61,378 nucleotides of DNA from an uncultured Anaerolineales bacterium (lineage in GTDB: Bacteria; Chloroflexota; Anaerolineae; Anaerolineales; UBA4823). Below the pieces are notes generated by a model that worked only from the letters and a program-made list of their open reading frames with translations, was not told where the DNA came from and did no database searches. The stretch lies in the NCBI GenBank assembly GCA_937968125.1, contig CALBUI010000075.1, forward strand, positions 1-61,378. The letters are read 5' to 3'. Shown here piece after piece: positions 1 to 15,819 of the stretch; the stretch's first letter is position 1; each line of letters opens with the position of its first letter. Position numbers and translations under genes: made by a program.

Positions 1-176
1 GTCACGATCCGTCGTTCAGATGGTAGTCCAGGTCCTGCTTCCCCATCACCAGCAGTTAGCCTGGCCAATGATTCCTTCAACGGTTTCAGAGCAGCATCAA
101 CGACATCATCACCCAGGACTGTGCGTTGTTTTTCTAAATCCTCAATCGATTTTTCAAGCTGCTCTCGCTCACCCAT
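1..176 (-). CDS. Partial CDS (N-terminus only, runs off the window): coiled-coil leader of a probable adenylate/guanylate-cyclase-type signalling protein
   Basis: Absent from the ORF track because it leaves the window. Reverse translation from the ATG at 174-176 gives MGEREQLEKSIEDLEKQRTVLGDDVVDAALKPLKESLARLTAGDGEAGPGLPSERRIVT. The terminal ERRxVT resembles the start of class III cyclase domains (ERRxVTVLFxD). Confidence 0.4.
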   Translation of the reverse strand, partial: MGEREQLEKSIEDLEKQRTVLGDDVVDAALKPLKESLARLTAGDGEAGPGLPSERRIV

Positions 177-257
177 TTTTCTTTCCCATGAATATTATTA
201 TCCCCCAGCTGACCTCTTAGAAAGTGAGTATTTGACAACCTCGGGCTCAAATAATGA

Positions 258-1838
258 TTATTCTTCTATGGTCACATAGCTGTTGACCAGTTCTTGGGCC
301 ACTGAAGATACTTCCAACCAGAATCGTTTGTTCTCCGGATCGCCTGGAACAAAAAGGTTATCGTACTTAACCCGGTCATCGCCCCTTGGAATCCGCTCAA
401 CTGCCCGGACCGCAAATTCGTGCAGCTGCCTGGCGTTAGAAAGCCTCTCGTTGAGAGCTACATAGTACAGCCCTAGTTTTTCAACGAAATTGATCTCGTG
501 TCCTAACTCCTGACCAGCCTGGGCAAACTGGCTCAGCACAATCAAGATGCGATCCCCGAAACTCATTGGTGGGATGATGAATTGATTTTCAGCCGGCACC
601 CGGCTGAGCAGGTCTTGACCTTTCGGCCGGATAGCCATGCGCTCCTTCATTCCATCCAGGCTGAAACCAGAACTGCCGGCCATAATGAAGACCAATGGCT
701 CAGATCTGGTTAAAGAAGCATCCAGGTAGGGCAGCAAGACATCATAGGGCCAGGCTTCCTGAGGTTTGGCGTCAATTTCGTCAATCAAACATAAAATGGG
801 CGTAGCGGATTCTGCAATAGTGGACAGCGAAGATTCAAATTCTTCCTGCTGGGTTTTGGCGAGGTTGATCTCGTGATATTCGTTTTGCTCTACTTGTGCT
901 GCAGCAATCTGCTGGGCAAAGAATGTTTTCCCGCTGCCAGGAGCAGCCCATATCATGTAATTCTTTCTTGATGAAGATTGATCCGCCAGGGATGAAAGTA
1001 TGCTTTGTTTGGCATCTTTCAAGTCATTGAGCACATGCTCTTCGTAGCGCGTATAATCACCAACGATGGAATAGCGGGGGAGCTTGACAATATCCATCTC
1101 TGCTATCAGCGGATACTGCCAGAAGGGGCTTTGTTTGCCGAAATGCCTCAGAGAGGATTGGTATTCCTCAAAATACTCATCCTTATGAGCCAGGTAATCC
1201 GGCTCTAGTCGCTTACGAAAAAGTGGACCACCGAAGACTTGCGCCCAATCGGAAACCGGCATGATGTAATCTTCTGCCATACGGTAGTAGAGCGACCATC
1301 GTTTGACGTGTTCTTCCGACCGGAAGATATTCATGCGACTTCAATTGAACGCCCCCGTTCCCTCCCGCCACTTCGCGAATGGCGACATTAAATAGGCGAT
1401 CGATGTGGGCGGATCGATCGCCAGTATCTCTTCATCTCGCATACGAACGGAGATAGGTTTTCCACAATCCAAACACATTGTTTCGATGTGAATTTCTTTT
1501 CCTGGGAAGAGCCAGCGCACGGCCAGCACTTCCATACCTCACTGGCCAAACCACTTTTGTTCACCGTCTATGGTAATTTTCAAATGGGTGGGAACATTAG
1601 AGAACGGCGCCCAAGACTCAATATAGTCCGTATCATGGGAGAGCCAGCAGCTGGCGATCGGCGCCGCAGCCGCGGTGTCTCGGATCAGGACCCTGGATTC
1701 GTCTATCTCAATATCGAGGGTATGAGCCAGTTCCACATAATGAGGCGCTCTTCCATGCTCAATAAAATGTTCTAACACACTCGTATATGCCTTCTGAATA
1801 AGTGTATCTTCGCTCATTTTCAAACCATCCTCAGGCAT
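258..1838 (-). CDS. MerB-like (alkylmercury lyase family) domain fused to a C-terminal AAA+ ATPase; candidate selenoprotein with two in-frame UGA codons (1539-1541 and 1341-1343), 526 aa if both are decoded
   Basis: Track ORFs 1539..1838, 1341..1535 and 258..1334 share one frame. They are separated only by TGA-GGT-ATG and TGA-AGT-CGC-ATG. WFGQ-[TGA]-GMEVLAV matches MerB YAW-C96-ALD99-TLIF. MCLDCGKP matches SSH-C117-AATGAP. AFN-[TGA]-SRMNIFRSEEHVKRW matches SF-C159-CHVHFFASVPTAEDW. The C-terminal part has Walker A AAPGSGKT and Walker B LCLIDEID. SECIS-like hairpins follow both TGAs. Confidence 0.6.
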
Positions 1839-1996
1839 CCTGGGATCTTTCCTGAATTATACAATTAAGGTCAACAATAATCAAATTTGTCCTTTGTATT
1901 TGCCTTCCCGACCGTAGTTCCAATTGAGACTAGAATTCTATAAGGTTTGTTTATGCACATTAATACTAAGTGCTCGAGGCTGTACCCTACACCTTG

Positions 1997-2422
1997 CTAC
2001 ACACCGATAACTCTCCTGAGAACTACGATTGCTCCCAGAAGAGCTCCCCAAACCGCATAGCCCACCAGCAGCAACGGTACCAGCTTCAAGCCAGCCCTGG
2101 ATGCAAACCAGGCTGCGAACAGAAACCCGATCGAAGGTATGATGCCCAATAACAAGCTGCTGCTGAATACCTTCATCGTCTCCTGGTCGCCGCTGTTTGC
2201 AGAGTAAACGATCCAAATCGCCAGCGTCGCGCCGATCGGCATCGTGGCGGTAATCGCCGCAGCAAACTTGCTCTGCTTCTCCAGAACTGCGACGAGAATG
2301 ATCACCACTATCGATAGTAGAACTGGGAGTACATCCTGTGTCTTCAATGAGCCCTCCTGATTATGTTCAGAAAATGCACCTTGATGGATTGCGAAGAAAA
2401 TCCTATGAGGATTCAAGAACAT
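1997..2422 (-). CDS. Small integral membrane protein, function unknown (true start probably internal to the listed ORF)
   Basis: Hydrophobic segments VLPVLLSIVVIILVAVL, MPIGATLAIWIVY, LLLGIIPSIGFLFAAWF and LVPLLLVGYAVWGALLGAIVVL. The 5' end overlaps the preceding gene by 20 nt. Confidence 0.5.
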   Translation of the reverse strand: MFLNPHRIFFAIHQGAFSEHNQEGSLKTQDVLPVLLSIVVIILVAVLEKQSKFAAAITATMPIGATLAIWIVYSANSGDQETMKVFSSSLLLGIIPSIGFLFAAWFASRAGLKLVPLLLVGYAVWGALLGAIVVLRRVIGV

Positions 2423-2852
2423 TCTTAAGACGCCGCATATTATTACTGAGAGTGCCCATGTAAATCCGCCTGACTATGAACTTGGGGACAAGACCCCAAA
2501 AATCACCCAGATTGGGCTTGAATAAAAAGGTCACCTTGGTGTCCCCGGATGTCCGCTCCCAAAGTGTCCCCCCTGCGGCCTGCACCGCAGCATTGGGGGT
2601 GCTGACATACATCACCTTTATCATCGGGTCGTAAACTGTGACTTCATACTCGTTGGTAAACGAGCGCCCCATGTAGCGATTATCGTACTTGCGGATGGTT
2701 CCCACCCCGTTTTGCTTCGGATCCGGAGACTGCTCCCAGCCCAGTAGATAGGGCTGCCACTCATGTTCCCGTTCTATATCATCCATGTAAGTGAAAACTT
2801 CTTCCCGCGGCTTGTTGATGACGATACTGTCTTCCAGATCCAGGACAAACAT
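2403..2852 (-). CDS. SRPBCC (START/polyketide-cyclase-like) family protein
   Basis: About 150 aa. The N-terminal pattern SIVINKPREEVFTYMDDIEREHEWQP is typical of the SRPBCC fold family. Confidence 0.6.
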   Translation of the reverse strand: MFVLDLEDSIVINKPREEVFTYMDDIEREHEWQPYLLGWEQSPDPKQNGVGTIRKYDNRYMGRSFTNEYEVTVYDPMIKVMYVSTPNAAVQAAGGTLWERTSGDTKVTFLFKPNLGDFWGLVPKFIVRRIYMGTLSNNMRRLKNVLESS

Positions 2853-2881
2853 TGCAGAAACTCCTTCTTGTCCAAACCAAG

Positions 2882-3598
2882 CTATGAGGAAGGGCTATAT
2901 CCCTGGCGCGCCTCAACCGGGGCGCGGGAAATCACCAGCCACACAACAACCAGGCCCACTACGATTCCCAACAAGGTGAGGTACAGCGTTTGGTTGAGCG
3001 CAAATCCAACCCCAAACCCAGTGGCGACACAGGCTGTCATCCAGCCCGCAGCCTGCAGACGGGGTCGCCTCCAGATTTCAAATTCAGTCATATGTGCTTC
3101 AGAACCAGGCAATCGCTCAGCACGGCGACTGGCGACCAGAAAGCCGATCAAAAGGGCGGGACGGACCAGATTAGCAAAATTCTGCACTGTGTTCCCGGGA
3201 GCCAGATTCCCCGTTGCGGCGATGTCCATCAAGTGTACGATGGTCGCTCCAACGCCGAACACCGTCACTGCGATGACCGTCGCCTCCCGAAAGCCATCCC
3301 TGCGCCCAGCCGCGATGAGGCCCAATATCCCTAGCATGAGGTTGGCGAATGCCACCTCCAGCTGGAAAGGGTTCCCGGCAGGCCAACCGATGAATTCGGC
3401 CACAATATCGGAGATGAAGAAGTGGCTGATAAATCCCGCGATCCCACTGCCGGCAACCCCCAACGAAAATATATAAATTAAGAACAGTTCCAGCCTGCGC
3501 TCCCGTGTGTTGGTCGACTTATCCAAAACAATTTGTGCTCCGGCCACCAAAAGCGGCAGGATTGAATAGATGAAGATACGGATAATTGCAAGGATCAT
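2882..3598 (-). CDS. Integral membrane protein, function unknown
   Basis: 238-aa ORF with about 6-7 hydrophobic helices and no recognisable catalytic motif. Confidence 0.55.
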   Translation of the reverse strand: MILAIIRIFIYSILPLLVAGAQIVLDKSTNTRERRLELFLIYIFSLGVAGSGIAGFISHFFISDIVAEFIGWPAGNPFQLEVAFANLMLGILGLIAAGRRDGFREATVIAVTVFGVGATIVHLMDIAATGNLAPGNTVQNFANLVRPALLIGFLVASRRAERLPGSEAHMTEFEIWRRPRLQAAGWMTACVATGFGVGFALNQTLYLTLLGIVVGLVVVWLVISRAPVEARQGYSPSS

Positions 3599-3693
3599 AC
3601 TATGTTTGTCCTCTGCGGCTCAAGCTTGAGATCATAAAAATTGATAGATTCCATACATTATATATCCAAAATATCGCTTACCTTCGGTTTGGC

Positions 3694-3921
3694 CTGGAAT
3701 TGGCTGAGAACATTTGGGAGATGCTCGCTGATTGGAATGGAGATTATCTACCAGAAGATCAGGTCAATCCTACCGGTCCTGGCACCGGTGGCAGGAAAGT
3801 AGCTCGCGGGGGATCGTGGCATGCCAGCCCGGACCATGTGCGCAGCGCACTACGCACCCACCTTGGCATTGACCAGCAGTTCAACCATGCTGGCTTCTGC
3901 TGCGTAAAATCAATCCCTTAA
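3694..3921 (+). pseudogene. C-terminal remnant of a formylglycine-generating-enzyme/SUMF1-type (FGE-sulfatase) domain
   Basis: AENIWEMLADWNGDY...NPTGPGTGGRKVARGGSWHASPDHVRSALR...HAGFCCV matches the conserved C-terminal about 75 aa of FGE-sulfatase domains (NVWEW..DWY...NP.GP..G..RV.RGGSW....R.A.R.....GFR). There is no room upstream for the rest of the roughly 250-aa domain. Confidence 0.55.
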
Positions 3922-3973
3922 TTGAAGTATTCTGGATAGTTAATAAATTCGCCCCCAACTTGATGATCTTTCC

Positions 3974-4402
3974 TTAACCGGCTCCTCCAGGCAGCGGGCT
4001 GATGATCAGGATATTTGTACCAAAAGGATCTGCTACCGGGCAGAAGCGGATAGGTTCGTACATCAGCTGGTCGCTGGGCGGCTCACCCACTCCTCCCGCC
4101 TCGATAAACGCCGCTTGCAGCCGGTCAGCCTCTTGTGGAGTCTGCATGATGATGTTCATCTCCACATTCTTTGGGTTTCCGGTTTTTCCTTTAAGCAGTG
4201 TCAACCAGGTGTTCCCAAGTCGCCAGCCGCGAGTACCCTGTCCTTCGACATAGCCTGGAGGACCCAAAACCCGGGTGTAATAATCAACTGCGGCTTCATA
4301 ATCTCTGAAATAGAGGGTCGTTCCGTGCAGCCCGCGGAACTCGAACAAGGATTCTGGGGCAGGATCTGCGAAAAATTTTTGGCGATAACTTTCGTAATCC
4401 AT
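3974..4402 (-). CDS. VOC (glyoxalase/bleomycin-resistance/dioxygenase) family protein
   Basis: Beta-alpha-beta-beta-beta module pattern (LHGTTLYFRDYEAAVDYYTRVLG ... PVADPFGTNILII). I chose the start at the ATG at 4402 because AAAGGAGAG lies about 8 nt upstream. Confidence 0.6.
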   Translation of the reverse strand: MDYESYRQKFFADPAPESLFEFRGLHGTTLYFRDYEAAVDYYTRVLGPPGYVEGQGTRGWRLGNTWLTLLKGKTGNPKNVEMNIIMQTPQEADRLQAAFIEAGGVGEPPSDQLMYEPIRFCPVADPFGTNILIISPLPGGAG

Positions 4403-4485
4403 CAAATGGCTCTCCTTTGTTTCATGCCGGTTGATTGTTGAACTGCCAGCCGACAAAAACCAAATTATCGGTACCCCTCAGGTGA

Positions 4486-5220
4486 TTATTCTTTCTCCAT
4501 ATTCTCACTAACCAGAGCCAGGTAGCCTGGCTCATCCCGGATGTTGTCCAAATCCGAATCCGACTTAGACCACTCAATCATGTCTGGACTAAGTGGAAAA
4601 GCCTCTTCTAATTTCTTAATCGCCACCTCTTTATCCCCGATCAATGAGTAGTAGCAGGCCAGGTTGTATAGCGCGCGTCCACGCCAAACTGATTGCTCAT
4701 CCAAATCAATCAAGGTGGCAGTTATTTCCTCCATCAGCTGGTTGCCGCTTTCCTTATCCCCGTGGTGGCTGAAATAAAAGGCGATATGCCCTTGTGGGTG
4801 AAAATACCCGTTATGCACAGTTCGCCTCCACAACGAGAGTCCTTTCATCCAACCATATCGCTGGCCGTCCAGAAGATCATCTTCAGATATTGAATGTACA
4901 TCTTCGACGAGTTCTGAATAGGCACGCACATGGAAATCAATTATTTCCCGCCAAGTTTTTTCCCTATAGCGGTGAAAAATCTCGTCATTTACGGCATCCA
5001 CATCTTCGTAGTTTGCTGGCTCCTCTCCTGACTTGAAGGAGCGAATCCTTTCGCTCGAGATTGATTTCCAGGCGGCTATGTGCACGATTTCATCTTTTAC
5101 TGCCCAGTCCTGCGCGGTCCCTTCTATGGACCTTTCTTCCTCGCTGAGACTGGCTACGAAGGTCAATTCATTGTGGTGTGATTTTTCTAGTAAATCCAGG
5201 AGCTGTTTTTTCTTTTCCAC
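4486..5220 (-). CDS. DinB/ClbS-like four-helix-bundle protein with a TPR-like C-terminal tail
   Basis: The N-terminal 150 aa have the helical-bundle pattern with spaced His residues (VHIAAW ... FHVRAY ... HNGYFHPQGH). The C-terminus ALYNLACYYSLIGDKEVAIKKLEEA is TPR-like. Confidence 0.45.
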   Translation of the reverse strand: MEKKKQLLDLLEKSHHNELTFVASLSEEERSIEGTAQDWAVKDEIVHIAAWKSISSERIRSFKSGEEPANYEDVDAVNDEIFHRYREKTWREIIDFHVRAYSELVEDVHSISEDDLLDGQRYGWMKGLSLWRRTVHNGYFHPQGHIAFYFSHHGDKESGNQLMEEITATLIDLDEQSVWRGRALYNLACYYSLIGDKEVAIKKLEEAFPLSPDMIEWSKSDSDLDNIRDEPGYLALVSENMEKE

Positions 5221-5406
5221 CGCTTTTCCTCCACTTGGTTCTTTACCATCATATGCGTGGCTTATATTTCGATAGAATTAGTCGCAATTGTGAGAATACC
5301 TGAAAACAGTTCTCAAGTCAATGGGATATCGCTCTTGCCGCAGTCCTCAATAGCAATGCCTGCGACAAACGCAATCAAGTGATAGCGAATAAAGCAGTAG
5401 AACTTT

Positions 5407-6120
5407 TCAAATTACCCTTTTAGCCAAAGGTAGGACGTCCACCAAATTCGGCGTGATCAACGTCTCACCGCCCTTTTTGAACAACATACGGCAGTGGTCG
5501 CAGCCCATGCCGATCGTTTCGCTGGCATCCAGACCTATCCCCAGGTAGTGGCTGTAGGTGACATCGCCAAAATTGCAGTATGGAGCCAATTCCATTACCC
5601 CCATCGCATCGTAGAACTTTATCACCGCACATTCGGAAAATTCAAAACCTGCGTCAAATTTATCTCCATCACCCTCTAATAGTACATACACCCAGTCTTC
5701 GGGATATTGTCGTTCCTGGGAGATATCTGCCTGCTTTCCAAATGCCTTCATCGTCCGCTGGCTCACGAGCATCCGTCCCCCCAGCCGGGCTACCGGGCCG
5801 GGTATTTTACGGAAGAGGTCATCAGCCACCTCCGCCCAAATGCTCATCACATCCTTAGCTGTTTTGCCGGTTTCCTTCATCGCCCTGAACATCGCAATAA
5901 TGAAGCCATTCACCACAATAATCGGTGTGTAGTAGTTCTTCATCCCACCCACATAGGGCATTTGCGGGATGATCTCGATAAAATTTTGGCGGGATTCAGA
6001 TACGATGCTCCTCGCGTATTCTGCCCCATAATAACTCAACAATTTCCTCCTGATCGGGCGGAAGGTGAGGTCAAAAAGCTTCAACAAACGATTTTGTCTG
6101 GAGAGATAATAATCTTCCAT
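5407..6120 (-). CDS. L-2-amino-thiazoline-4-carboxylic acid hydrolase-like family protein
   Basis: About 237 aa with the C-terminal Cys pattern FSECAV...APYCNFGD...GMGCDHCRMLF. I recall this pattern from the family; the assignment is tentative. Confidence 0.4.
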   Translation of the reverse strand: MEDYYLSRQNRLLKLFDLTFRPIRRKLLSYYGAEYARSIVSESRQNFIEIIPQMPYVGGMKNYYTPIIVVNGFIIAMFRAMKETGKTAKDVMSIWAEVADDLFRKIPGPVARLGGRMLVSQRTMKAFGKQADISQERQYPEDWVYVLLEGDGDKFDAGFEFSECAVIKFYDAMGVMELAPYCNFGDVTYSHYLGIGLDASETIGMGCDHCRMLFKKGGETLITPNLVDVLPLAKRVI

Positions 6121-6183
6121 TTTTTCTAACCCTCAACTTTCCTTTTGGTATCCCTATCTGGTCAACCCAAATCCACAATCGCA

Positions 6184-7050
6184 TCAACTGGCGAGGACAG
6201 CCTTGATTTCCTCGGAGCGCTGGTCAATTTCCCGCGCGGTCTCACTCAACATGTCATCATAAATATTGCCAGCACCTATCAGCATCCCCTCTGCCTCTGC
6301 CAGGGCTGCGTAAATCAACCGCAGCAACCGTTGTGATTCGCTTGGTACAAGTCCCAGTTGGTGAAGCGTCTTTTCGACTTGGATTGTATGCTGCCTCATG
6401 TGCGACTCGAAGCGGTGCATGCGAAAGCGCAATACCATCGGTTCATCTTCCCAATACTTGGCCGGCAGATCCAATTCAGAGGATTCAACACTGGCAATAT
6501 CGGTTAATACCCTCTCATGTAGATCGCAATGGAAGGATTCTAGTCCGGCTATTGGTCCAGTAATCATATCGTCAATCTCACTATCGCTCATCCCGGCAAT
6601 ACCCAACCAGGTATCATCATCAATTTCAACCAGTTGATCCAATCCCTGGCGGTATCGATCCAGTGAAAACTTGATCACCACATAGAAGCCCAAATCAGCT
6701 CCCACGATATGGGCGATAATCCTGCGCAGGGGCCACTCCCCTTCAGCCGGTGGTTTTTCCTCGTATTCACTACCCACTCCCAAAAGGACAGATTGCAGGT
6801 CATTGTATGCCGCGTGGTATTGAGCCAGGATCCTCTGGGCTTCTGACAGCGGCGTTCCCGCAGCGACGCGCGCCTGGTTGAGTTTCACCGCCAGCTCGCG
6901 CAGCTGCTCAAGGGTGCGGAAGTAGGCAAAGCGGACACCTTCGGATTCATAGGAACCCCAGACCCATTCTCTCTCCAGATCAGAGTCTGTGATCCCTTGG
7001 ACGAGTTCAGCAAAGCGGTAAACTGATTTGGATACGGAATTGTCAAGCAA
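6184..7050 (-). CDS. DinB family protein
   Basis: Helical-bundle His motifs (IIAHIVGADLGF ... MHRFESHMRQHTIQVEKTL) typical of the DinB/YfiT-like metal-binding bundle. Confidence 0.55.
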   Translation of the reverse strand: MLDNSVSKSVYRFAELVQGITDSDLEREWVWGSYESEGVRFAYFRTLEQLRELAVKLNQARVAAGTPLSEAQRILAQYHAAYNDLQSVLLGVGSEYEEKPPAEGEWPLRRIIAHIVGADLGFYVVIKFSLDRYRQGLDQLVEIDDDTWLGIAGMSDSEIDDMITGPIAGLESFHCDLHERVLTDIASVESSELDLPAKYWEDEPMVLRFRMHRFESHMRQHTIQVEKTLHQLGLVPSESQRLLRLIYAALAEAEGMLIGAGNIYDDMLSETAREIDQRSEEIKAVLAS

Positions 7051-7106
7051 AAGTTCACCTCCAACAGGTACCAGTAAATTAAATCTCTATTCTTTCCCCG
7101 ATCTTA

Positions 7107-7898
7107 TCACGCTGAAGATAAATTCTTCTCGAAGCTGTAAATGTCATGCGAACTGAAGACATTCACTTCGTCACCATGTTCTTGAATCAATTGGCGTAGT
7201 TTTGGAACATGCGGTCCGCAGAACCTGTGGGACAATCCTCCAGGTAAAAAGTTCAATGACTGCTGCGCCTCAGGATATCCGTGAATATCCACTTCTTTGT
7301 GGAATGGAGAGGCAGCATCACCACAGTTGAAAATCCACCCCTGATCGCTGGCAACTGCTACTCCGCAGTGACCACGCGTGTGACCCGGGAGAGGTATCAG
7401 GTGCATCTGCGGTGAAATCCCCTCCAGGATATCAATGCGCGGGAAACCCAACCACTTACCATCTACCTGGTCGTAGAATACCCACTTTGGATCATGCGTC
7501 CAATGAGCAGAATCGCAGCCTCGTTCAAGCAGAGTACGCGGCTGGGTAGCTGAATCGAGTTCACCTTTGAAAAGGTGGACATTTGCCTGGGAAAAATCAC
7601 GCAATCCACCGGCATGGTCCAGGTGCAAATGGGTGAGTACAATATGCTTCAAGTCTTGCGGGTCATAACCCAATGATTTCACCTGATAAACCGCCGTCTC
7701 TTCGACCTTGCGCGGGACTCCCATCAGCCGCATAAACCCATCCATCATCGGCGAGGGTTTTTTATAATCCTGGAGACCGAACCCGGTATCGACCAGCACC
7801 GGTCCATCATCCGTCTCTACCAACAAACAGTAGACAATACTGCGCAAGCGGGGGTATTTTGGGGATAATGTCCCGCAGTTCAAATGATGTATCTTCAC
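7107..7898 (-). CDS. MBL-fold metallo-hydrolase
   Basis: Canonical HxHxDH motif in LTHLHLDHAGG, plus downstream PGHTRGH and a conserved Asp/His. Confidence 0.8.
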   Translation of the reverse strand: MKIHHLNCGTLSPKYPRLRSIVYCLLVETDDGPVLVDTGFGLQDYKKPSPMMDGFMRLMGVPRKVEETAVYQVKSLGYDPQDLKHIVLTHLHLDHAGGLRDFSQANVHLFKGELDSATQPRTLLERGCDSAHWTHDPKWVFYDQVDGKWLGFPRIDILEGISPQMHLIPLPGHTRGHCGVAVASDQGWIFNCGDAASPFHKEVDIHGYPEAQQSLNFLPGGLSHRFCGPHVPKLRQLIQEHGDEVNVFSSHDIYSFEKNLSSA

Positions 7899-7954
7899 TT
7901 TTTTGTCGCCTCTTTAAGGTCGCAACTTTGATTGATCAGAGATAAGGCAATTCA

Positions 7955-8392
7955 CTAAGGACCTGGATTAGCCCCACGCTGGGATATTCCAAACAGGTTG
8001 CCATCCGGATCATACAATGCGGCCAGTATAGCCCCCCAGGGCTTTTTCGTTGGCGGGTATTCCACTCTCGCCTCCAGCTCCTTAAACCTTGCAAAGGTGG
8101 CCTCGACCTCCTCCACCTCAAACCAGAGAGAAACCTCTCCAGAAGGAGCAGGCACATCCTCAACCAGGTCAAAACCGAACAATCCACATATCTCTTCTTT
8201 TTGAATAACCGCGATAAATGCGTAGCCCTCCGGGGGTTGGCTGGCCTTGAAGTCCTCAGCAATTTCCTCCCGTGACTCCCCGAAGTAGCTGATCTTGTGC
8301 TCCGGAATCTTGTTTAATCGCATGATGAAATGGATTCCCTGCTCAAGATTTGAATCTCCAGGCGGGAAAATCTTCAGATCAGGTCTCTTCAT
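7955..8392 (-). CDS. VOC-like domain protein (C-terminal half); N-terminal half unassigned
   Basis: The C-terminal VSLWFEVEEVEATFARFKELEARVEYPPTKKPWGAILAALYDPDGNLFGI is a typical VOC module. Confidence 0.4.
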   Translation of the reverse strand: MKRPDLKIFPPGDSNLEQGIHFIMRLNKIPEHKISYFGESREEIAEDFKASQPPEGYAFIAVIQKEEICGLFGFDLVEDVPAPSGEVSLWFEVEEVEATFARFKELEARVEYPPTKKPWGAILAALYDPDGNLFGISQRGANPGP

Positions 8393-8425
8393 GCTGTTTG
8401 ATTTTGGAAATTTTGTGTTTTAAGT

Positions 8426-9208
8426 TTAGCGGACAATATTCAGCATCAAACCTAACTCATCGCTGATCAGGCGCACTTGCTGGATTGTCTCCTCCGGTGG
8501 GAAGATCAATGTTTCGTCTCCTCCGGCGCCCTCTACGCGAGTCCCTTCCAGCCAGAAGACCTCCTGCGAATCAGGCAAGTTATCCAGGACTGATTTTAAA
8601 TCCTGAACACCACTGACTGTTATTTTAACCCACCCATCCGGAGTAATAAAACTGTCTGGCGAGAGGATCTCGTCAGAAGTCTTGCTGCGGTTTGTGCCGC
8701 TGATTAAAGTGAAATGCCACCTATCTTCTTCGAGCCAGGAATATAACTCGTACCCCTTCTCTGAGGCTGGAAATTCCTCTTCCCATTCTAAGACCTCAAA
8801 AGCCCCCTCCTTGATTATCTCAATCTCAATCTGCGAACCACCCTCTGCTGAGATGGTGTGTGTGCCAGGCATTAAATCCACCGGCACTTTCAATTTTGCC
8901 TCACAGTGGTTTACCATGCAGCTCAGCGACCCAACCGGTTCATTGCTTATGTGAACCGCGAAAAGTCTCTGCGATTCGTTGTAGAAATTTCCGCACTCAA
9001 TTTGGTATCCCCCGCTAGCGATGATTATTATCTCGCCACCTGCTAATATCTGCTCAGGCTGGACGGCTTGCAGCTCGGGCCAGATGATCTCCGCCTCCGT
9101 TGGGGAACACTCACTCGGTTGAGGTGTAGGCAAAGGTGGAGGTTGTTGGCATCCCACGATGAAGAGGGCACCCGCCAGCACCGAGAAAATGGTTTTGAAA
9201 CGCATCAC
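8426..9208 (-). CDS. Secreted lipoprotein, function unknown
   Basis: Signal peptide with lipobox MMRFKTIFSVLAGALFIVGC, followed by a Pro-rich linker. The start overlaps the stop of the upstream gene (ATGA). Confidence 0.6.
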   Translation of the reverse strand: MMRFKTIFSVLAGALFIVGCQQPPPLPTPQPSECSPTEAEIIWPELQAVQPEQILAGGEIIIIASGGYQIECGNFYNESQRLFAVHISNEPVGSLSCMVNHCEAKLKVPVDLMPGTHTISAEGGSQIEIEIIKEGAFEVLEWEEEFPASEKGYELYSWLEEDRWHFTLISGTNRSKTSDEILSPDSFITPDGWVKITVSGVQDLKSVLDNLPDSQEVFWLEGTRVEGAGGDETLIFPPEETIQQVRLISDELGLMLNIVR

Positions 9209-15283: not shown

Positions 15284-15819
15284 ACCCAGGCCAGTTCTCC
15301 AGGCCCTCCCGGACCGGTCAAGGCTTTTGGTCGCTGGATGCGGATCAGGCGGTAGCTTTCCAATAGCTCAAGCAAATCCTGATCGGATAGATTTTTTTGA
15401 TTGGCACCAAACAAGGGGCCCGCAAAACCGCTGGCGCGGAGCACCTGCCGGATAATTTTGGTATTCCCCTCCATTTCGGATACATCCTCGGCGATCCCAG
15501 CCCACCGGCCATCCGGCAGCCATACCTCCACCTCTGGATTGGCCATGATGTTCAGGTACCAATCAGATACCCTGCCAAATCCAGCAGTACAGTAGATTTC
15601 TCCATCAACGATGGCGTAGTTCAACGGCGTGTGACGCGTGAGTCCCGTCTTACGACCGGTGTGCTTGATGACCAAATAAGAGCCGCCAAAGGAGGTCCCG
15701 TTGCCCCACGAACCCAAACCCAGGCGCCAGAGCAGCAGCATAAAGCGGTTAAAGGATTTGAAAATGCTCCGGAGGCTATCTTCCGAGACTTTCATCCCGG
15801 CTATTTGATATTCATACAT
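15226..15819 (-). CDS. Nitroreductase-family deazaflavin (F420)-dependent oxidoreductase-like protein
   Basis: The core LVIKHTGRKTGLTRHTPLNYAIVDGEIYCTAGFGRVSDWYLNIMANPEVEV matches the DUF385/Ddn-like split-barrel family. Confidence 0.6.
   Translation of the reverse strand: MYEYQIAGMKVSEDSLRSIFKSFNRFMLLLWRLGLGSWGNGTSFGGSYLVIKHTGRKTGLTRHTPLNYAIVDGEIYCTAGFGRVSDWYLNIMANPEVEVWLPDGRWAGIAEDVSEMEGNTKIIRQVLRASGFAGPLFGANQKNLSDQDLLELLESYRLIRIQRPKALTGPGGPGELAWVWPAATFFLLWVLMRRRRK

Follow-up and report, generated by a model that had tools for sequence, protein, structure and literature searches.

SaoL is a MerB-like organometallic lyase and a selenoprotein, with selenocysteine (Sec) at the position of MerB Cys159 (Haft & Gwadz, bioRxiv 10.1101/2022.07.06.499078). 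Its single Sec forms part of a Cys-Sec dipeptide, Cys99 and Asp102 are kept, and the protein is encoded in the nine-gene SAO locus of anaerobes (bioRxiv 10.1101/2022.07.06.499078; PMC13188914; PMC9312934). It is the only MerB-like selenoprotein that we found in the searchable literature, and in databases it is usually shown truncated at its UGA. The consensus of the bacterial selenocysteine insertion sequence (bSECIS; SECIS in general) is a loop of 3-9 nt on an upper stem of 4-16 bp, with a G in the first two loop positions that usually precedes G or U, and an energy of -7.5 kcal/mol or lower (PMC13188914, Fig. 2); the distance from UGA to loop is 16-37 nt (PMC13188914, Fig. 2; PMC10778597). 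Here we describe a gene on a stretch of 61,378 nucleotides from an uncultured Anaerolineales bacterium (contig CALBUI010000075.1, the whole stretch being called the window below), which contains two in-frame TGA codons, each followed by a hairpin. A preliminary description, made from the letters of the DNA, had read the hairpins as SECIS-like and as a sign of programmed decoding rather than decay. It is very probable, at about 0.93 by our estimate from the sequence comparisons, that both hairpins are functional bSECIS elements, one per UGA; that SelB binds them and that Sec is inserted is our inference, as is the protein's chemistry.

Like SaoL, the predicted protein belongs to the MerB superfamily and would carry Sec at the Cys159 position. 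Unlike SaoL, it would have Sec at the equivalents of both Cys96 and Cys159, with Glu for Asp and an Asn-Sec instead of a Cys-Sec pair; there is no conserved neighbourhood, and the domain is often fused to an AAA or an adenylate-cyclase domain. A double-Sec MerB-like family is absent from NCBIfam release 20 and from the two reviews of prokaryotic selenoproteins consulted. The putative SECIS elements also differ from the known bacterial ones. There are two of them in one gene, their stems are unrelated, both are almost nucleotide-identical over several phyla, and the first has a 5-nt loop, C-GU-G-C, whose positions 21 and 24 covary as the two bases of a closing pair would.

Structure of the two hairpins

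Hairpin positions are counted with the U of UGA as 1, and the coordinates are collected in Table 1. Hairpin 1 is the minimum free energy structure of the 63 nt downstream of UGA-1, with an energy of -15.7 kcal/mol. It consists of 5 + 6 pairs around a U-U mismatch, two of the pairs being G-U, and G22 and U23 of its loop lie at 1520 and 1519. Hairpin 2 is in the same way the minimum free energy structure of the 63 nt downstream of UGA-2. Its core folds with -7.3 kcal/mol, or -10.0 kcal/mol in the context of 45 nt, and the family consensus, which has an extra C16-G33 pair, reaches -15.5 kcal/mol. The preliminary description had drawn hairpin 1 at 1533-1505 (11 pairs, a U-U mismatch, two G-U pairs, loop CGUGC with G22/U23) and hairpin 2 at 1327-1312 (a perfect 6-bp stem, GGUC at 23-26), and these coordinates and pairs proved exact. 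It had also held that hairpin 1 is specific to the mRNA sense, and when the antisense strand is folded the upper stem does break up.

Compared with the consensus, both hairpins are placed as bSECIS elements are, directly downstream of an in-frame UGA and within coding sequence. The first has a 5-nt loop on a 6-bp upper stem and the second a 4-nt loop on a 6-bp stem (7 in most homologues); a G stands in the first two loop positions in both, C-G-U-G-C and G-G-U-C, and the spacings from UGA to loop, 17 nt for the first and 19 nt for the second, fall within the bSECIS range. The energy of hairpin 1 is clearly below the threshold, and that of hairpin 2 is below it in context, while its core alone falls just short. 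No claim is made for a CAUG/CAUG lower stem of hairpin 2, which pairs in part of the sequences only.

The E. coli fdhF SECIS folds with a GGUC loop at 22-25 and the GU at 23-24. Set beside it, hairpin 2 has the same GGUC loop with its GU at 24-25, one nucleotide further from the UGA, and hairpin 1 has its GU at 22-23, one nucleotide closer. At both sites the GU is thus off the fdhF register by no more than 1 nt, as the preliminary description had proposed. The bulged U a few nucleotides 5' of the fdhF loop has no counterpart in the perfect stem of hairpin 2, and in hairpin 1 its place is taken, 7 nt 5' of the loop, by a mismatch that is U-U or C-U.

Conservation of the hairpins and their coupling to TGA

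Homologues were collected as 163 loci, that is the window, 2 look-ups, 80 genome loci and 80 metagenome loci. RNAalifold recovered both hairpins from the family alignments. In the core of hairpin 1, 14 of the 17 positions are invariant among 92 sequences with less than 90% identity, and the exceptions listed are G18, C21, G24 and C27, the last kept in 91/92; G22 and U23 are invariant in all 92. Among 91 distinct sequences 93.6% of the cells are paired, as compared to 35-56% with slid partners, and every change in the upper stem keeps pairing, with G18>A giving A-U and C27>U giving G-U. The pair 21-24 covaries (CG 79, AU 3, GC 3, GU 2, UG 1) and is for this reason best taken as closing the loop and presenting G22-U23, similar to GGUC. 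The mismatch between the two stems is U-U or C-U in the family. A conserved lower stem beyond GAR/UUY was not upheld, as pairs 9-37 and 13-33 are each kept in 58/91 sequences.

The 16-nt core of hairpin 2 is essentially invariant among 99 sequences of less than 90% identity, with G24 invariant and U25 present in 98/99. Paired cells amount to 96%, and the sole stem change is A30>G, which gives U-G. Most sequences have an optional seventh pair, C-G, at 16-33; it is U-A in three (L104, L108 and L133), and in the window the two positions are unpaired. The window contains a single copy of the core 16-mer, against an expectation of 0.05 matches when up to 2 mismatches are allowed. The loop also has rare natural variants, GGGC (no U) in L045 at 2335-2379, AGUC in L042 and L052, and GGUU in L123.

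The codon alignment comprised 99 sequences with a mutual identity below 90% and had 76 conserved degenerate codon columns. The nine columns of lowest synonymous entropy among these 76 are codons +5 to +8 after TGA-1 and +5 to +9 after TGA-2, and the median entropy ratio elsewhere in the gene is 0.96; the +4 column after TGA-1, a variable Val/Ser/Ala, is outside the 76. After UGA-1, Val-Leu-Ala-Val-Arg is written as GTG (100%), CTG (87%), GCC (87%), GTG (88%) and CGC (97%), and after UGA-2, Leu-Phe-Arg-Ser-Glu as CTC, TTC, CGG and TCG (100% each) and GAA (96%). The background frequencies of the hairpin codons are 26-74%. The alignment shows purifying selection at the nucleotide level, confined to the hairpins. 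As a check, the preliminary description had asked for stems that are kept despite synonymous drift. This is the pattern observed, both in the suppression restricted to the hairpins and in the substitutions that preserve pairing (G18>A, C27>U and A30>G, with covariation at 21-24 and 16-33).

The hairpins also follow the TGA codons. Counted over distinct 45-mers, hairpin 1 is present in 111/111 sequences with TGA at site 1 and in 3/16 with Cys there, and hairpin 2 in 125/126 sequences with TGA at site 2 and 0/2 with Cys. The lone sequence with TGA at site 2 that was scored as lacking hairpin 2 has the loop GGGC on an intact stem. In the genes with Cys at site 1, hairpin 2 is intact after their remaining TGA, and divergent Cys/Sec branches, with 37-66% identity to the Cys/Cys homologue P0008, retain CTCTTCCGGTCGGAAGA after TGA-2. 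One homologue (L169) writes LAVRW as CTC GCG GTG CGC, which breaks the stem of hairpin 1, and another (L163) writes IFRSED as ATA TTT CGT TCT GAA GAC and has no hairpin 2.

It could be argued that the conserved peptides E-x-L-A-V-R-W-L-F and L-F-R-S-E-E bring the hairpins about through self-complementary codons, with no function at the RNA level. GAR and UUY codons are reverse complements and give 3 pairs in the lower stem of hairpin 1 and 3 in hairpin 2, and the same peptides are conserved in the Cys forms too. However, third positions are fixed inside the hairpins only (the 100% of CGG, TCG and CTC and the 97% of CGC stand against backgrounds of 26-34%), and other invariant residues use codons at background entropy. 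Amino-acid constraint fails to explain the stems because several of the Cys forms encode the same peptides with other codons, and in the counts given above the Cys orthologues that switch codons lose the stems. The preliminary description had proposed the Cys orthologues as a check on precisely this point, and the hairpins are mostly lost with Cys. We consider a mere peptide by-product extremely unlikely.

A different objection is that the hairpins serve some other RNA role, such as pausing for co-translational folding, mRNA stability or the binding of a regulator, and that their proximity to UGA is coincidental. The conservation does show selection on RNA and not its purpose, and SelB is a putative partner of the hairpins. 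Against a coincidence, each hairpin stands in the same register after its own UGA, with the GU within 1 nt of that of fdhF. Furthermore, hairpin 1 decays where site 1 has turned to Cys, as in L017 and L032, while hairpin 2 of the same genes stays intact, which ties each hairpin to its own codon. We give another RNA role next to no probability.

The two UGA codons in the family

Gene finding breaks the locus into open reading frames (ORFs) of 99, 64 and 358 aa, and a protein search gave four kinds of match. Some are full-length, at about 235 aa, and have W at both sites; others, about 158 aa long, terminate exactly at site 2; the rest are N-terminal fragments that terminate exactly at site 1, and 358-aa 'AAA ATPase' fragments that start just past site 2. 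At the DNA level, 151 of the 163 loci have TGA at both sites, and the other 12 have it at site 2 only, with TGC/TGT at site 1. Site 2 is TGA in 163/163 loci and in 4 more divergent ones, and TAA or TAG was found at neither site in any of the 163. The frame is open and conserved past each TGA, without frameshifts across the loci, and homologues align through both codons. The hosts belong to at least five phyla (Chloroflexota, Actinomycetota, Desulfobacterota and relatives, Nitrospirota, Gammaproteobacteria); they include Anaerolineales and other Chloroflexota, Acidimicrobiia and other Actinomycetota, many Desulfobacterota, Syntrophales and Geobacterales, Nitrospirota, some Gammaproteobacteria, and others. 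Carriers with closed or near-closed genomes include CP070764.1, whose protein is 85% identical, CP070639.1, CP070811.1, OY970333.1 and Desulforhabdus sp. TSK. The 158-aa type of protein is explained by L002, where site 1 is Cys, site 2 is TGA and the frame runs on into a cyclase domain.

The fragmented calls could suggest a decayed gene. The TGAs would then be inactivating mutations, the pieces of 99, 64 and 358 aa either remnants or genes in their own right, and the hairpins chance features. Public databases do list such pieces, for example a 158-aa 'organomercurial lyase' (P0014) and a 358-aa 'AAA family ATPase' (P0048), and there is an ATG within 2-3 codons of each TGA. This is hardly conceivable when the same two TGA positions recur in 151 loci across phyla, never as TAA or TAG and never with a frameshift, when the protein is strongly conserved across and past both codons, and when both positions are those of catalytic Cys residues. 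Nor is the Met that follows TGA-1 a conserved start, since about half of the sequences have Leu there. The comparative evidence supports programmed decoding over decay, as the preliminary description had argued.

UGA might also be read as something other than Sec, either by reassignment to Trp or Gly (codes 4/25) or by near-cognate or Cys read-through with the hairpins as generic enhancers. Gene calls of the Joint Genome Institute (JGI) translate the TGAs as W (P0001-P0007, P0013), and the L165 lineage truly has TGG at site 2, with TCA at site 1. However, 21 of the window's 58 long ORFs end in TGA, so UGA has not been reassigned genome-wide. Both sites align with Cys in MerB2 and with TGC/TGT in family members, Cys being what usually stands in for Sec. 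The hairpins bear the bSECIS hallmarks of a GU loop and a 17-19 nt spacing, and the loop of hairpin 2 is the GGUC of the E. coli fdhF SECIS. Many of the hosts belong to selenoprotein-rich lineages, such as Syntrophobacter and the Desulfobacterota. We regard decoding as a residue other than Sec as very unlikely, and Sec as the probable reading at both codons.

The JGI calls mentioned above, of about 235 aa, put Trp at both Sec positions, and the DNA of P0001 (L001 896-1609) has TGA; the Trp is a mistranslation with a UGA=Trp code and not a genuine variant. A separate case is L165 661-1374 (P0010, GCA_036704645.1), where site 1 is TCA (Ser) and site 2 TGG (Trp) and both hairpins are intact; P0011 is similar. 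This looks like a recent loss of Sec by single-base changes, which would leave a catalytically odd protein. In GCA_002403855.1 the Cys/Sec gene is followed, about 1 kb downstream and on the opposite strand, by a short ORF with a match to the MerB Pfam family (L166 2912-3163, minus strand), which may be another MerB-like gene split at a UGA.

Evidence that weighs against the SECIS assignment

Several observations do not favour two functional SECIS elements. The preliminary description had accepted as a refutation that the stems be no more stable than shuffled coding sequence, and, taken literally, this was found. The z values of the folding energy against dinucleotide shuffles were -0.43 (site 1) and -0.14 (site 2) over 63 nt, and -1.17 and -0.12 over 121 nt. 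A total-energy test is regarded as insensitive to an element of 16-29 nt within 63 nt, and we have not treated it as refuting. In their position the hairpins do exceed chance. The window has 0.0013 hairpins per nt that combine a stem of 6 bp or more, a loop of 3-6 nt and GU at loop position 1-2, and the probability that one starts within a 5-nt register after a given codon is about 0.0065, or about 4e-5 for both codons. For the two hairpins the comparative evidence is far stronger than any such single-sequence statistic.

The stems are also not free of the influence of the protein. Complementary Glu (GAR) and Phe (UUY) codons dictate some of the pairs in GGAAG/CUUCC, the lower stem of hairpin 1, and a part of hairpin 2 (UUC/GAA) is complementary simply through its Phe and Glu codons. 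The core of hairpin 2 is invariant and offers no compensatory changes, and for this reason the evidence for it is the invariance of synonymous sites and not covariation. The counts of hairpins with TGA and Cys were taken without phylogenetic correction, and the Cys-site-1 sequences come from few lineages.

In positions 1-3000 of the window no relevant Rfam family was matched at E values up to 10. There is no tRNA-Sec in the 61-kb window, which has no tRNA at all, nor in 60 related loci, and selA, selB and selD were absent among the 20 window ORFs scanned, which included all those of SelA, SelB or SelD size and encode ribosomal protein S1, a ClpC-like protein, parts of ABC transporters, aminotransferases and similar proteins. 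The missing machinery says little, since sel genes need not be linked to the gene that they serve. The presence of selA, selB, selC and selD in the host genome is presumed.

Proposed decoding

During translation, SelB-GTP with Sec-tRNA(Sec) would bind the apical part of the hairpin, beginning 11-13 nt past the UGA. Hairpin 1 would present its GU dinucleotide on the closing pair C21-G24, and hairpin 2 on G23-C26. SelB would then hand the Sec-tRNA(Sec) to the UGA in the A site, and Sec would be inserted without termination. The ribosome is expected to melt hairpin 1 and to read 66 codons further, where the event would recur at UGA-2 with hairpin 2. The product would be one polypeptide of 526 residues, in which a MerB-like domain with Sec100, Glu103 and Sec166 is followed by an AAA ATPase domain.

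A MerB-like protein with two predicted Sec residues

With the TGA codons read as Cys, the MerB family of Pfam matches aa 79-200 with E 1.9e-17 and 63.9 bits, as compared to a cut-off of 27, and the AAA match covers aa 295-395 of the window protein. The MerB-like part makes up the N-terminal 235 aa or so of the 258..1838 product, with the AAA ATPase in the C-terminal part. The best sequence match in the PDB is MerB2 (5c17), and both TGA codons align with its catalytic Cys residues. An AlphaFold model of the Cys/Cys homologue P0008, which is 52% identical (pLDDT 82.6), has only MerB chains as PDB matches, with E about 2e-7 and TM 0.55-0.64; judging by this model, the fold of the family is that of MerB. 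The protein would be a MerB-like selenoprotein with two Sec, in which both MerB nucleophiles are replaced.

Compared with MerB itself (PF03243; PDB 3f0o, 5c17), the two nucleophiles and the acidic residue stand at the same alignment positions, but the identity is only about 13-16%. The predicted Sec100/Glu103/Sec166 would be analogous in chemistry, and not identical, to Cys96/Asp99/Cys159. The family further differs from MerB by an extra conserved CxDC motif, the lack of a mer operon, and C-terminal effector domains. The models for true MerB (NF033555 / NF009710) give 23-26 bits against cut-offs of 193-200, and the SaoL model (NF040728) gives 39.7 bits against 140, all of them well short; the family is neither canonical MerB nor SaoL. 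In the family alignment the Cys columns of the Cys-Leu-Asp-Cys motif are conserved to 98-99% and the Asp column to 100%; E. coli MerB is not known to have such a motif. A further cysteine, Cys64 in a Cys-Trp pair, is 88% conserved. Together, the motif and Cys64 might act as a thiol relay or build a second metal site.

Three architectures were observed. Stand-alone proteins of about 235 aa are encoded at 47 loci, fusions to a class III adenylate/guanylate cyclase at 69 and fusions to an AAA ATPase at 24, including the window. The cyclase fusions (e.g. L002 3001-4185) are mostly from Acidimicrobiia and other Actinomycetota and the AAA fusions (window 258-1130) mostly from Anaerolineales. The stand-alone proteins stop at an FW motif, where the fusions carry on. 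As a speculation, the double-Sec domain could act as a sensor in the fusions. The 160 loci compared have no neighbour family in common across taxa; their synteny is at the level of lineages only, and there is no mer or SAO operon.

The gene and its surroundings

The features of the gene are listed in Table 1. The true start is likely the ATG at 1817, which matches the starts of homologues (MSEDTLIQKAYT). A promoter-like match sits about 20-40 nt upstream of the candidate starts at 1838 and 1817.

Table 1. Features of the predicted recoded gene, in window coordinates
Feature	Position	Strand	Remarks
Sigma-70-like promoter match, TTGATT-17-TATAAT	1856..1884	-	Consensus scan, 10/12 matches; pattern match only
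Recoded gene (predicted)	258..1838	-	Single frame in translation; 527 codons = 526 sense/recoded + TAA; the two TGA are the only breaks
MerB (alkylmercury lyase) domain, Pfam PF03243	1239..1604	-	Covers both UGA codons
UGA-1, codon 100	1539..1541	-	Predicted selenocysteine; MerB Cys96 equivalent
SECIS-1 (predicted), full hairpin	1505..1533	-	GGAAG-U-GCUGGC / CGUGC / GCUGGC-U-CUUCC, positions 9-37
Glu103 codon, +3 from UGA-1	1530-1532	-	Equivalent to MerB Asp99
SECIS-1 (predicted), conserved core	1511..1527	-	Upper stem GCUGGC/GCUGGC (15-20, 26-31), loop CGUGC (21-25)
Cys-Leu-Asp-Cys motif, codons 122-125	1464..1475	-	Between the two predicted Sec codons
UGA-2, codon 166	1341..1343	-	Predicted selenocysteine; equivalent to MerB Cys159 and SaoL Sec
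SECIS-2 (predicted)	1312..1327	-	UCUUCC/GGAAGA stem (17-22, 27-32), loop GGUC (23-26); G24/U25 at 1320 and 1319
AAA ATPase domain, Walker A GSGKT	654..956	-	PF00004, E 4.6e-6; in-frame fusion with the MerB-like part

At window 1395-1422, on both strands, the terminator scan flagged GGCGATCGAT...ATCGATCGCC, a perfect inverted repeat of 10 bp around an 8-nt loop. It is coding sequence between the two UGAs and encodes AIDPPTSIA. The neighbours at window 1997-9208, all on the minus strand, are a run of small, unrelated genes of accessory type (SRPBCC/polyketide cyclase-like, DUF6790, DUF1706, ATC hydrolase-like, DinB-like, metallo-beta-lactamase, glyoxalase-like), and no mercury- or selenium-related gene is among them. 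A second selenoprotein gene was not seen among the other in-frame TGA candidates of the window; the best of these, at 15370 on the minus strand, was rejected as its upstream frame is nonsense-like.

Implications

For annotation, a gene that public pipelines fragment in three or mistranslate with Trp would be one protein; the fragments carry the labels 'organomercurial lyase', 'AAA family ATPase' or adenylate cyclase. The selenoproteome would gain a MerB-like family with two active-site Sec, found at more than 160 loci from bacteria of soil, sediment and groundwater. Specialists would expect the SECIS assignment itself. What is unexpected is a predicted active site in which both nucleophiles are Sec, the near-identity of the putative SECIS elements across phyla, and the fusions to effector domains. 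Two well-conserved SECIS candidates in one mRNA, together with natural controls that have Cys at one site or at both, should be useful for the study of SelB recognition outside E. coli and for SECIS predictors, and the natural loop variants of hairpin 2 could serve as tests of the loop bases that SelB requires. The near-identity from Chloroflexota to Desulfobacterota implies either a recent horizontal spread of the gene or an unexpectedly uniform SelB recognition code across phyla.

Sec in place of both MerB nucleophiles would bear on microbial handling of organometals, including mercury, and the cyclase and AAA fusions suggest a sensing role that can be tested. It is conceivable, and we put it forward tentatively as something we would sooner doubt than assume, that the double-Sec MerB-like domain is an undescribed and widespread family that works mostly as a sensory module controlling the fused class III cyclase or AAA ATPase. 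Its two Sec may then serve to capture a ligand, which could be a soft metal, an organometal or, through diselenide formation, an oxidant, rather than belong to a detoxifying lyase. If true, this would be the first selenocysteine-based signal-input domain.

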